DNA of 64,000 bases from the sequence record NC_052654.1; one strand, 5' to 3'. This document shows positions 34,240-45,261 of this stretch, piece after piece. The position numbers and the translations under genes were made by a program. Under the pieces are notes generated by a model. That model was not told the DNA's origin, made no database searches, and worked only from the letters and a program-made list of their open reading frames with translations. Each line of letters starts with the position of its first letter. Positions within the stretch are counted from its first letter, which is position 1. Origin of the DNA: Escherichia phage vB_EcoM-Ro121c4YLVW.

Positions 34240-34337
34240 ATAAATCATTTAATGAAGGGCAACCAGAAGAAGTGTGAGAGAAGGAGAAAACCATGAGTAA
34301 AAGAGAAAGTTTTCTGGCAACCCTTTATTAAATAATT

Positions 34338-34411: not shown

Positions 34412-34422
34412 CATATATATTT

Positions 34423-34452
34423 ACTATACTACATTTTACTATTTGTTGTCAA
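34423..34452 (-). promoter_or_regulatory. sigma70-like promoter inside tRNA cluster
   Basis: minus-sense TTGACA, 18 nt, TATAGT just upstream of tRNA-Gly 5' end. Confidence 0.5.
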
Positions 34453-34725
34453 GACTTTTATTGATTGGGACAGTGACGAGTATCCCGTTGGGTGACTAGC
34501 CCTACGTTCGGTAAGCTAACTTAAAATAATACAAAACCAAAGTCAAATATTATTCTTCGTTGCTGTCGATGGGAGAGCCGCTTCTCATTTTGCCCCATCC
34601 AACCCTACTCCGGTCAAGTTTCGGGTGACTCTTTTTGTGATCAACACAATACTAAGAACACTGTCTTTCGAGCAGACCTTGTGCACAGGATACGACGATC
34701 AATCACAGTGCTCTTAATGTTGTGT

Positions 34726-35383: not shown

Positions 35384-35391
35384 ATACTTAT

Positions 35392-35421
35392 AATCTAACA
35401 TAAAATAATGTTTGTTGTCAA
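35392..35421 (-). promoter_or_regulatory. sigma70-like promoter inside tRNA cluster
   Basis: minus-sense ATTGACAA then TTAGATT about 17 nt later, just upstream of tRNA-Ser(TGA). Confidence 0.45.
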
Positions 35422-35627
35422 TAGTTTTTTAAAACATTTTACCATGAATGGTGACTCCACCAACCCCCGTTCTCCACGAACGGTGCTCTTCGAGCATTTA
35501 TGTCTTCTAATATAACCGTGGCCTTTGTTTATAATGTCTGACATACTTGCCTCATTCTCTGCCACCATGATCAGTAGTGGGTTCAAATCACTTGAGCTAA
35601 TTCATGTTAAAATGTTCTGGTGTCTTT

Positions 35628-35704: not shown

Positions 35705-35779
35705 GGCTGGTTTCGATCCAGCTACCTATCGGTTATGAGCCGACAGCTCTCCCATTGAGCTACAGGGCCATAAATGTGG
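35705..35779 (-). tRNA. tRNA with CAT anticodon, tRNA-Ile2 (lysidine) -like
   Basis: acceptor GGCCCTG/CAGGGCC; loop CTCATAA; resembles E. coli tRNA-Ile2 as recalled; CCA encoded. Confidence 0.75.
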
Positions 35780-35978
35780 TAACAGAGACGCTGACGATTG
35801 TAGAGAACCGCTACATTCTCTAAGACCAAGCCCAACTTTCAGCGTAAAAGTTCTTGAGCCGAGACTATTCCTTTTCCTCTTTGGTAGCTAACCTCTGAAG
35901 AAGTAGTCTCTAACACTACCGCAGTGCAAGCCCCTCTTAACAAAAGTCAACGACCCTGTTACCACACTTGATGAACGT

Positions 35979-36774: not shown

Positions 36775-36975
36775 TCCGTACTGTACTTCATACTGATCTA
36801 TAGATCAAGTATTATTTATAATAATTTATTATTTTATTTTTAATTGATAGAAGTTGATCTGTACGTACCAGTTCTGATACACTGTACCTGTTTGTTAGAT
36901 CTAATAATTATTTATTATTAATATTTAATAATTATTAATCTAGTACGGAGTACAGTACTTGAGTACAGAGTACTA
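36775..36975. promoter_or_regulatory. AT-rich palindromic control region, candidate replication origin / divergent promoter hub
   Basis: inverted repeats GTACTGTAC (36778-36786) and GTACAGTAC (36950-36958) flank AT-rich core; 14 bp palindrome TGATCTATAGATCA; several GATC and GTAC sites. Confidence 0.4.
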
Positions 36976-44535: not shown

Positions 44536-45261
44536 ATGATCGAGAATTTTTTTAAAGATATTAAGTTCGATACTGAATTTTTCAAAAATGCAGCGAAGCA
44601 CGTGATTGATTGGAATGCTAAAGCACGAGGTGGTGAACAACCTGAATTCACTCAAGAGCTATTTATGTCCCAAATCGGATTCGTTCGTGAAGAGCTTAAA
44701 GAGTATGAAACAGCCGCGAAAGTAAACGATCATGTAGAACTCTTGGATGCAGCAGCGGATATTTTTGTAGTATCCAGTTATCTGACCTACATGTTCTTTG
44801 GTGAAGAACATACGATGAATTTCTTGGACTATGCTGTAGGCGATGTTTTTACTCCAACTGTGTATACTGATTTTGATGCTTTGGAACAAACATTTACAGA
44901 GCCAGTTCAAATGGCACTAATGGCTGCTGGTATTATGCGTATGTCTCGTGACACTCTAATCCGTTCAAAATATCCAGAAAAGAAAGTTATTAAAGAGGTA
45001 TTGAAAAGTAATGATTCCAAGTATCCAACTAAACAACAGTTGCTGAAAACTTGGAAAACTTCGGATATCGATTCAGCCATTGCACAAGAATGCGCTGCAA
45101 TTGAAGAACGAAATGCCAATCGTCCAGAAGGGGCATACACTGGTGTTCATGCTGTTTATAATGAAAAACAGAAAGTGTATGTGTTCTTTGATGATAAAGG
45201 TAAGATCATGAAACCATCGACCTTTGTCAAACCTAATATTGCAGGTATTATTAACAAGTAA
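44536..45261 (+). CDS. hypothetical protein (possible MazG-like NTP pyrophosphohydrolase)
   Basis: 241 aa; acidic helices EELKEYE...ELLDAAAD; weak assignment. Confidence 0.5.
   Translation: MIENFFKDIKFDTEFFKNAAKHVIDWNAKARGGEQPEFTQELFMSQIGFVREELKEYETAAKVNDHVELLDAAADIFVVSSYLTYMFFGEEHTMNFLDYAVGDVFTPTVYTDFDALEQTFTEPVQMALMAAGIMRMSRDTLIRSKYPEKKVIKEVLKSNDSKYPTKQQLLKTWKTSDIDSAIAQECAAIEERNANRPEGAYTGVHAVYNEKQKVYVFFDDKGKIMKPSTFVKPNIAGIINK

Follow-up and report, generated by a model that had tools for sequence, protein, structure and literature searches.

Conserved structured RNA modules between the tRNA genes of a Phapecoctavirus, one of them apparently remodelled from a tRNA-Ile gene

Introduction

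The tRNA region of phage T4 is known to encode stable RNAs that are not tRNAs, as rnaC and rnaD adjoin tRNA-Arg in that phage. Both RNAs, of about 120-140 nt, are encoded just 3' of tRNA-Arg and share a transcript with the tRNAs; by its fold rnaC is partly tRNA-like with a T arm. Here we analyse a 64,000-nucleotide stretch of Escherichia phage vB_EcoM-Ro121c4YLVW (sequence record NC_052654.1; "the window" below), in which three tRNA-free spacers, A, B and C, lie in a minus-strand tRNA cluster. A first-pass annotation of the window, made from the letters only, had correctly cited the T4 precedent and suggested that these spacers may encode small stable RNAs.

Several other described systems combine tRNAs or their processing with structured RNA. 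In YrlA and tmRNA a tRNA-like part is joined to other helices and the 5' and 3' ends are paired. RNase III substrates, such as the sites in T7 early mRNA and the helices flanking 16S and 23S rRNA, bracket a unit that is excised from a polycistronic RNA. 'Theta' ribozymes, which are like that of hepatitis delta virus (HDV), are placed right after a tRNA 3' end, and hairpins of the ERIC (enterobacterial repetitive intergenic consensus) or MITE (miniature inverted-repeat transposable element) type show inverted arms, variable cores, several copies and insertion polymorphism. ROOL and GOLLD are large, ornate, phage-associated structured non-coding RNAs (ncRNAs) that lie beside tRNA arrays and form homo-oligomers (PMC12286853).

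The locus described here is like that of T4 in that it holds candidate non-tRNA RNAs within a phage tRNA cluster, on the strand of the tRNAs and abutting a tRNA, and one of them, module B, likewise follows tRNA-Arg. The phage family differs, the RNAs are larger with long helices that join both ends, and B is partly tRNA-like by its D and anticodon arms and not by a T arm. When T4 rnaC and rnaD were compared with all spacers by blastn-short, only chance 7-11-mers were returned, the best being a T-loop string in a tRNA-like gap, and therefore the relation to the T4 RNAs is one of kind and not of family. We find that the spacers hold four unrelated, evolutionarily conserved RNA modules (A1, A2, B and C), each folding with its own 5' and 3' ends paired. 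They comprise at least three RNA families absent from Rfam 15, all within a known kind, the structured RNAs of phage tRNA clusters.

Results

The spacers are conserved, structured and non-coding

The 2.46-kb tRNA region is 100% identical to that of Escherichia phage ESCO13 (Phapecoctavirus, Stephanstirmvirinae) and 95-99.9% identical to those of about 70 relatives. The three spacers exist as annotated in the first pass, but their coordinates had been off by up to 10 nt: spacer A extends from 34412 to 34725 (tRNA-Gly to tRNA-Thr), spacer B from 35384 to 35617 (tRNA-Ser(UGA) to tRNA-Arg; the earlier end, 35627, lies 10 nt inside tRNA-Arg) and spacer C from 35770 to 35978 (tRNA-Met/Ile2(CAU) to promoter P1). 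As claimed, they hold no canonical tRNA, since ARAGORN finds neither a tRNA nor a tmRNA within them; none of them qualifies as a cloverleaf, with no tRNA call by ARAGORN or by Rfam RF00005. Rfam 15, whose scan had been proposed as a check, was run on the cluster both at gathering threshold and with a cut-off of E<=10, and five related loci were scanned with E<=0.1. Beyond the tRNAs it gave only sub-threshold noise, and no family, YrlA and tmRNA included, was found inside the spacers even at E<=10.

The view that the spacers carry no convincing protein gene was borne out too. Their open reading frames do not exceed 63 aa, stops or frameshifts interrupt the longest, that of spacer B, in six of the eight homologues, and the substitutions are without codon periodicity; the coding reading fails. 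Public records of WPEC1/2/4/6, FENT2, Tr1, EP57 and ETEC-TG carry automatic 'hypothetical protein' coding sequences (CDSs) laid over A1, A2, B and C, which are very likely spurious because of the covariation described below and the broken frames.

Hairpins had been noticed in the spacers, and their minus strands do fold better than shuffled sequences, with z = -2.5 for A, -4.0 for B and -5.8 for C (minimum free energy of module C -76.8 kcal/mol; 0 of 200 shuffles). All spacers are kept in related phages with compensatory base-pair changes, whereas lack of conservation had been named as what would speak against small RNAs. Thus, the suggestion of structured non-tRNA RNAs is supported in part: it stands on conservation, compensatory pairs and non-coding status, while sequence kinship to T4 and the motif GGTGACT, said to recur in the spacers, do not support it. 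The copies of GGTGACT exist, at 34491, 34624 and 35450, with two of the three positions previously wrong by 10, but the window contains five copies against 5.6 expected. As the motif is not enriched, the tie formerly drawn between the spacers carries no statistical weight; of the three copies, that in B alone is within an invariant hairpin, and both copies in A2 are not kept in relatives. No paralogy among the spacers was detected by blastn, and the four modules are unrelated. Two further candidates were rejected. A pair of strings, GCUCAAG...AGAGAAUG, is shared with equal spacing by B and C, yet the second string is a covarying stem strand in C and is invariant and unpaired in B. GATC in the conserved loops could have been a Dam-related signal, but GATC is not avoided in the window (268 observed, 226 expected).

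Module B is related to tRNA-Ile(GAU)

Module B (35617-35432, minus strand) is an RNA of 186 nt whose 5' end immediately follows the tRNA-Arg CCA. By BLAST it is present in all Phapecoctavirus genomes; the copies of the phiWec179 lineage share about 82% identity with it, and those of Seunavirus, in the Vequintavirinae (PVP-SE1, SSE121, 4MG, GAP31 and FENT2), about 70%. It has a further homologue in Klebsiella phage 05F01 and was not found in 5,426 complete E. coli genomes. The Seunavirus and 05F01 homologues lie within tRNA clusters: in 05F01 the whole interval from tRNA-Met to tRNA-Leu(UAA) is taken up by B, and in Seunavirus it ends about 4 nt ahead of tRNA-Leu(UAA). An alignment of nine sequences shows the invariant blocks AUUAGCUCA, ACUGAUCAU, GAGAAUGAG and GGUGGAGUCACCAU, and about 70 invariant, mostly unpaired positions span two phage subfamilies in which the flanking tRNAs differ. 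The consensus fold of the nine sequences has 49-50 pairs, with 90-94% of the cells paired compared to 34-46% in slid controls, and 21-23 pairs are changed on both sides compared to 4-7 in the controls, a number reached by none of 500 shuffles.

The 5' part of B is collinear with tRNA-Ile(GAU), a derivation missed in the first pass. The collinearity covers a 7-bp acceptor-like stem, U8-A9, the D arm, N26, a 5-bp anticodon stem and a 7-nt loop. The acceptor-like stem, CAUGAAU (35606-35600) with AUUCAUG (35449-35443), covaries within the Stephanstirmvirinae, and is extended by a 9-bp leader/trailer helix, which leaves B without a free CCA. Positions 35599-35563 correspond to the D arm and the anticodon arm, with the loop CUGAUCA at 35574-35568. 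Compared with the phage's own tRNA-Ile(GAU), nucleotides 19-55 of B are identical at 30 of 37 positions, from U8 through the anticodon stem (0 of 300 shuffles), and tRNA-Ile is the top-scoring tRNA for B in six of nine lineages. In the anticodon-like stem four of five pairs covary. The invariant loop reads CUGAUCA where tRNA-Ile has CUGAUAA; this A-to-C change at loop position 37, fixed in eight of the nine sequences, creates the 6-nt palindrome UGAUCA. In place of the variable and T region B has about 115 nt, which include a variable domain, P4, and a covarying hairpin, CCGUUC-GUGGA-GAACGG (CCACAC-GUGGA-GUGUGG in 05F01), and the position of the T arm is occupied by an invariant 4-bp hairpin, GGUG-GAGU-CACC (35461-35450). 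Given the collinear similarity and the maintenance of the corresponding helices, B can be classed as tRNA-derived, and its sequence points to a strongly constrained, non-chargeable RNA. In YrlA and tmRNA it is the T arm that is retained and the anticodon arm that is missing, the reverse of the situation in B.

Module A1 is a hairpin shared by unrelated phages

Spacer A is composite, an arrangement also overlooked in the first pass, and consists of an inserted hairpin (A1), an ancestral trailer RNA (A2) and a promoter. A1 (34727-34641, minus strand) is an 85-nt hairpin with the core GAUUGAUCGUCGU-[small hairpin]-GUCUGCUCGAAAG and an outer stem of about 22 bp, made of 8+14 pairs with one bulge; at its base it takes in the final two CCA bases of tRNA-Thr(UGU), as seen in the fold and in the extent of the covariance-model match. 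As A1 is missing at the equivalent site in Tr1, KP2025 and 05F01, we consider it an insertion in the Phapecoctavirus lineage. No transposase is linked to it, and the only candidate flanking repeat, the 5-nt CACAA, is not convincing. A1 shows no similarity to tRNAs.

The core GAUUGAUCGUCGU...GUCUGCUCGAA is identical in unrelated phages and prophages. In the Klebsiella siphophage SCNJ1-C it is located 126 nt upstream of tRNA-Arg and tRNA-Met, on their strand, and it is also present in the 9NA-like phage PJ16, in 17 IMG/VR contigs and in 15 metagenome contigs. A query spanning the hairpin is matched in 40 of 5,426 E. coli genomes; in one prophage A1 lies between Q and the holin gene and in another it adjoins a pseudo-tRNA. 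The outer stem, CACAACAGGUAAGAGCAUUGA...CAGUGCUCUUUCCGUUGUG, carries other cores in further phages: in lambda, at ~44,785-44,866 in the late leader, directly after the terminator tR'; in the P22-like IME10; in S192, Bas78 and the epsilon15-like PAT1; and in a second copy in PJ16. With the pairs numbered outward from the core, five of 14 show compensatory double changes and two of 14 G-U-compatible single changes. Searched with a covariance model derived from the first core type, the window yields one copy, scoring 91.5 bits on the minus strand compared to 23.6 on the plus strand. The model also recovers lambda (37 bits), IME10, PAT1, S192, Bas78 (two copies) and PJ16 (two copies), with no match in Seunavirus, Tr1, 05F01, KP2025 or T4. 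Several copies per genome are present in PJ16, Bas78 and the locus L024. In all five loci tested the tRNA-sense strand folds better than its complement, by 5-14 kcal/mol, and this predicted asymmetry points to selection on RNA.

Searching representative bacterial genomes for the core gave eight matches, all of them chance occurrences in GC-rich coding DNA without the hairpin. Weak tmRNA-like matches upstream of the A1 homologues in SCNJ1-C and PJ16 were far below threshold. The papers on prophage small RNAs (AgvB/AsxR, the Pas sRNAs, the P22 sncRNAs) concern other loci, and P22E does not match A1.

In one E. coli prophage (locus L028, 3004-3194) the 3' strand of A1, GUUGUGG, is also the 5' acceptor strand of a 115-nt pseudo-tRNA-Gly with a 55-nt insertion in the anticodon region, and the two folds would exclude each other. 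Homologues of B or A1 are also found in non-coding 'islands' of 0.75-1.1 kb in Salmonella phage PVP-SE1 (L003, 2198-3171), PAT1 (L049, 456-1583) and PJ16 (L009, 1808-2560). These islands, which are probably multi-module ncRNA loci, hold further conserved hairpins, e.g., GCGCAGGCUGAUGCGC and GCCGGAGAUCAGCACCGGCC; those of siphophages, some with tRNAs, run opposite to the flanking structural genes.

Modules C and A2 are a leader and a trailer

Module C (35969-35773, minus strand) is a leader RNA of about 200 nt with a multi-hairpin domain, which ends 3 nt before tRNA-Met/Ile2(CAU). Its closing helix of 22 bp pairs AAGUGUGGUAACAGGG.CGUUGA with UCAGCG.CUCUGUUACCACAUUU. C was seen only in Phapecoctavirus-type genomes and has no similarity to tRNAs. 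Compared to phiWec179 (79% identity) all 66 predicted pairs are kept, with eight double compensatory and three single compatible changes, whereas slid controls give zero or one double change; one position of the closing helix differs, against a divergence of about 25% in the interior.

Module A2 (34634-34460, minus strand) is a structured trailer RNA of about 175 nt. It contains a 5' block, GAGUCACCCGAAAC..GGAGUAGGGUUGG, a covarying helix, GGAUGGG/CCCAUC, a variable hairpin, the hairpin CUUAC-CGAAC-GUAGG and a terminal hairpin, GGGAUA-CUCGUCAC-UGUCCC. Homologues follow tRNA-Thr(UGU) directly in phiWec179, Citrobacter phage Tr1 and Klebsiella phages KP2025 and 05F01, and precede a promoter and tRNA-Gly; the placement after tRNA-Thr holds in every member of the Stephanstirmvirinae examined. 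In relatives the covarying helix becomes GGUUGG/CCAACC or GAUUGG/CCAAUC and the terminal helix GAGAUA/UGUCUC. The reading of A2 as a decayed tRNA-Gln was set aside, as the likeness (p ~0.01 in the window phage and phiWec179) was not reproduced in Tr1, KP2025 and 05F01.

The edges of the modules match the ends of tRNAs, as B and A2 start after CCA and C ends next to the first tRNA.

The modules belong to one tRNA operon

All three spacers belong, as non-coding segments, to a single tRNA operon of the minus strand, which has the promoter-like sites P1-P3 and one terminator. Every tRNA of the cluster is on the minus strand according to ARAGORN, Rfam and the annotation of the near-identical phage ASO2A. 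ARAGORN calls ten tRNAs, to which Rfam adds tRNA-Tyr (35071-34987) and tRNA-Ser(UGA) (35383-35297), both annotated in ASO2A; the latter, which borders spacer B, has an Rfam clan match of 35.7 bits and is named tRNA-Ser-TGA in ASO2A. From P1 on, the order is P1, C, tRNA-Met/Ile2(CAU) (35769-35695), tRNA-Arg(UCU) (35692-35618), B, P2, two tRNA-Ser, tRNA-Tyr and tRNA-Asn, followed by a tRNA-like element, tRNA-Thr(UGU) (34800-34726), A1, A2, P3, tRNA-Gly through tRNA-Met and the terminator. The two tRNAs between C and B are found by ARAGORN and Rfam and are annotated in ASO2A, and tRNA-Thr is found by ARAGORN and Rfam.

The predicted promoters, all on the minus strand, have a TTGACA box and an 18-nt spacer. 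P1 (36008-35979; TAGGAT with a TG extension; 10/12 in the consensus scan) heads the operon, so that the leader of about 190 nt that had been described between a promoter and the first tRNA is confirmed as spacer C. P2 (35421-35392; TAGATT with TG; 10/12) and P3 (34452-34423; TATAGT; 11/12) are at the transcription-downstream ends of spacers B and A, respectively. P3, which has counterparts at the equivalent place in Tr1 and KP2025, is predicted to drive tRNA-Gly and the genes onward. A putative intrinsic terminator from the terminator scan (33641-33623, minus strand), with a terminator at the matching place in ASO2A, closes the operon.

Other elements of the region

Between tRNA-Asn and tRNA-Thr (34891-34801, minus strand) we note a non-canonical tRNA-like element that is uncalled by ARAGORN and Rfam. 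Its acceptor stem is of 7 bp (GGACUUG/CGAGUCC), its T arm has a loop of 8 nt (UAUCGAAU), and its anticodon arm is extended and without a 7-nt loop; the element is 97% identical in phiWec179 though the adjoining tRNA-Asn is replaced there. A second uncalled element, between tRNA-Ile and tRNA-Met (33913-33836, minus strand), has a canonical T arm (GCUGG-UUCGAAU-CCAGC), an acceptor-like stem (UCCCGU/ACGGGA) and an aberrant anticodon region. The Gly/Gln spacer (34240-34337) is a long hairpin of about 26 bp, 99% identical in phiWec179, whose pyrimidine-rich loop is antisense to a 12-codon mini-ORF of the plus strand (region 34281-34331); this mini-ORF (34293-34331; MSKRESFLATLY) is preceded by a strong Shine-Dalgarno sequence, GAAGGAG.

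Upstream of the neighbouring genes of the tRNA operon there is an extremely AT-rich intergenic block (36795-36939), which could be an origin-like or regulatory region. It contains a direct repeat of 39 nt (spacing 103 nt) and several palindromes that are close to perfect, and is flanked by GTAC-rich strings. In Klebsiella phage ZCKP1 the homologous tRNA cluster is interrupted by an insertion of about 0.7 kb that carries an XRE-family antitoxin gene (helix-turn-helix) and a hypothetical gene, and would be a moron inside a tRNA operon.

Discussion

Based on these data we favour, as the probable explanation, that the spacers of this operon are conserved structured RNA modules which are released by way of tRNA processing and to which we assign the roles proposed below. 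We class B, A1 and C as conserved structured RNAs, C from two sequence types, and A2 more weakly so. As the boundaries of the modules are at the ends of tRNAs, the route by which they arise is, by analogy, most likely that of the T4 species 1 and 2 RNAs. The modules would be co-transcribed with the tRNAs; RNase P would cut at the downstream tRNA, 3' maturation would trim the upstream tRNA, and discrete RNAs of about 85-200 nt would be released, whose base-paired termini may protect them from exonucleases, as is established for those of T4.

The individual roles, each of which we hold with low certainty, differ between the modules. B may have arisen from a gene of the tRNA-Ile(GAU) type, keeping the acceptor-like stem, the D arm and the covarying anticodon arm while the variable and T region was replaced and the free CCA was lost, and we speculate that it acts in trans as a tRNA mimic or as a scaffold for a factor that recognises the D/anticodon half of tRNAs. 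Compared to ROOL and GOLLD, B is likewise a structured ncRNA beside phage tRNAs but is several-fold smaller and has no Rfam match; that its palindromic loop could support kissing-loop dimers is pure conjecture. A1 would be a horizontally mobile hairpin module that phages put into long non-coding transcripts, such as tRNA units and the lambda late leader, and would, speculatively, be an element of the RNase III-substrate type that acts in RNA processing or stability. Like RNase III hairpins, A1 and C have stems of about 20-22 bp with some internal loops, the near-continuous duplex reaching at least 20 bp in both (22 pairs in C; 8+14 pairs in A1, with one bulge), and both are predicted to bracket a unit in the same way. 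The sequence-conserved distal core of A1 and the large conserved interior domains of B and C go beyond what an RNase III site needs. C and A2 may, equally speculatively, be a lineage-restricted leader and trailer that insulate the folding of the tRNAs and define processing sites. A more pointed version seems to us doubtful, namely that B is an exapted tRNA-Ile-derived mimic, either a decoy for a host factor or defence nuclease or an RNA that self-associates via UGAUCA, or that A1 represents an unnamed mobile hairpin family, common to virulent myoviruses and the lambda late leader, which serves as a general phage RNA processing or stability module.

Several observations weigh against released, functional RNAs. 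The short, unremarkable spacers of the cluster also pair their ends, which fits a role in cis as well as one in trans. B, with no T loop, no D-loop G18-G19 and no CCA, cannot fold or be charged like a tRNA, and we know of no partner protein or target for it. The conserved flanks of A1 with their swapped cores could reflect recombination at the level of DNA and not RNA function. In A2, nine of 31 predicted pairs show a compensatory change and several are broken; because some pairs break, its structural support is moderate, and that for C is good but stems from two sequence types only. The promoters and the terminator are consensus matches only, in numbers not above the shuffle expectation. The searchable literature holds no Phapecoctavirus transcriptome, RNA-seq or Northern data for these RNAs and nothing on these sequences or loci, and no paper there mentions A1 or the core strings.

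The main rival takes the folds to be purely cis-acting: structured spacers that keep the folding of the tRNAs undisturbed and present sites for RNase III, RNase E or RNase P, the pieces being waste. Every spacer of the cluster, including the short Ser/Tyr, Gly/Gln and Gln/Pro ones, folds with its ends paired, the closing helices of C and A1 are of RNase III substrate size (about 20-22 bp), and the modules end exactly at tRNAs, all of which such a role would explain. Yet neither a spacer nor an RNase III site needs the roughly 70 invariant, mostly unpaired nucleotides that B retains across two subfamilies. B also keeps a covarying anticodon-like arm with an invariant 7-nt loop, and the copies of A1 in lambda, Bas78 and PAT1 are far from any tRNA. 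We therefore regard a purely cis role as a real possibility, though an unlikely one. Decay of tRNA pseudogenes, i.e., eroding remains in a fast-turnover cluster without selection, is suggested by the clearly tRNA-Ile-like 5' third of B, by the two gaps with non-canonical, T-arm-bearing tRNA-like elements (34891-34801 and 33913-33836) and by the variable tRNA content of relatives. Erosion would hardly maintain the helices of B, C and A1 by compensatory substitutions, retain B, at about 186 nt and with its invariant blocks, as one unit in both the Stephanstirmvirinae and Seunavirus, or fix the change at loop position 37 in eight of nine sequences; moreover, the likeness of A2 to tRNA-Gln is not reproducible across lineages, and A1 and C resemble no tRNA. 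We consider this account quite improbable.

There are two further possibilities. Inverted repeats acting as DNA, whether as a miniature mobile element, a recombination 'linker', an operator or an origin, would account for the presence or absence of A1 at one site, for its multiple copies in PJ16, Bas78 and L024, and for flanking arms that carry at least four different cores in unrelated phages, much as in ERIC- or MITE-type hairpins. A1 differs from these in being confined to phage non-coding RNA islands, on the strand of the tRNAs, and in its compensatory and G-U changes. The G-U wobble pairs are what make the sense strand fold better by 5-14 kcal/mol in all five loci, and they accord with the covariance scores (91 bits in sense, 24 on the other strand); A1 is always on the strand of the adjoining tRNAs, even where the flanking genes run opposite; it has no transposase and no clear target-site duplication; and the argument does not apply to B, C and A2, so that a DNA-level explanation is very improbable. 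Self-cleaving ribozymes that trim tRNA ends, HDV-like 'theta' or hammerhead, would suit the position of A1, A2 and B right 3' of a tRNA CCA, which they share with 'theta' ribozymes, and the strings CGAAAC and GGAGUAG of A2 loosely recall hammerhead core motifs. Against this, the ribozyme families of Rfam 15 (HDV-like, hammerhead, twister, pistol, hatchet) give no match even at E<=10, A2 and B lack the complement for an HDV-type P1 helix (in A2 the first 7 nt, GAGUCAC, have none downstream), and A1 is a simple, unbranched rod. These checks, made by model and by eye, leave room for a new ribozyme class, and we see only a very slight chance that the modules are ribozymes.

Phage tRNA clusters are usually annotated as tRNAs with empty spacers, whereas here the 'empty' parts are selected as RNA. 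The 50-year-old observation of the T4 species 1 and 2 RNAs is thereby extended to phi92/rV5-like phages, which are found in therapy collections. The three families that are ready as covariance models (A1, B and A2) could join RNA family databases and would curb spurious CDS calls such as those in the WPEC phages, FENT2 and Tr1. B appears to exemplify how a tRNA gene can be turned into a structured RNA of another type and bears on the debate over phage tRNAs and tRNA-targeting defences (PMC10264068, PMC11555353). With the A1 family, a covarying hairpin that had not been annotated comes to light in the lambda late leader, where genetic tests are feasible in the best-studied phage. These RNAs would matter more if B were shown to function as a tRNA mimic, or the hairpin of lambda to be a general phage RNA element.

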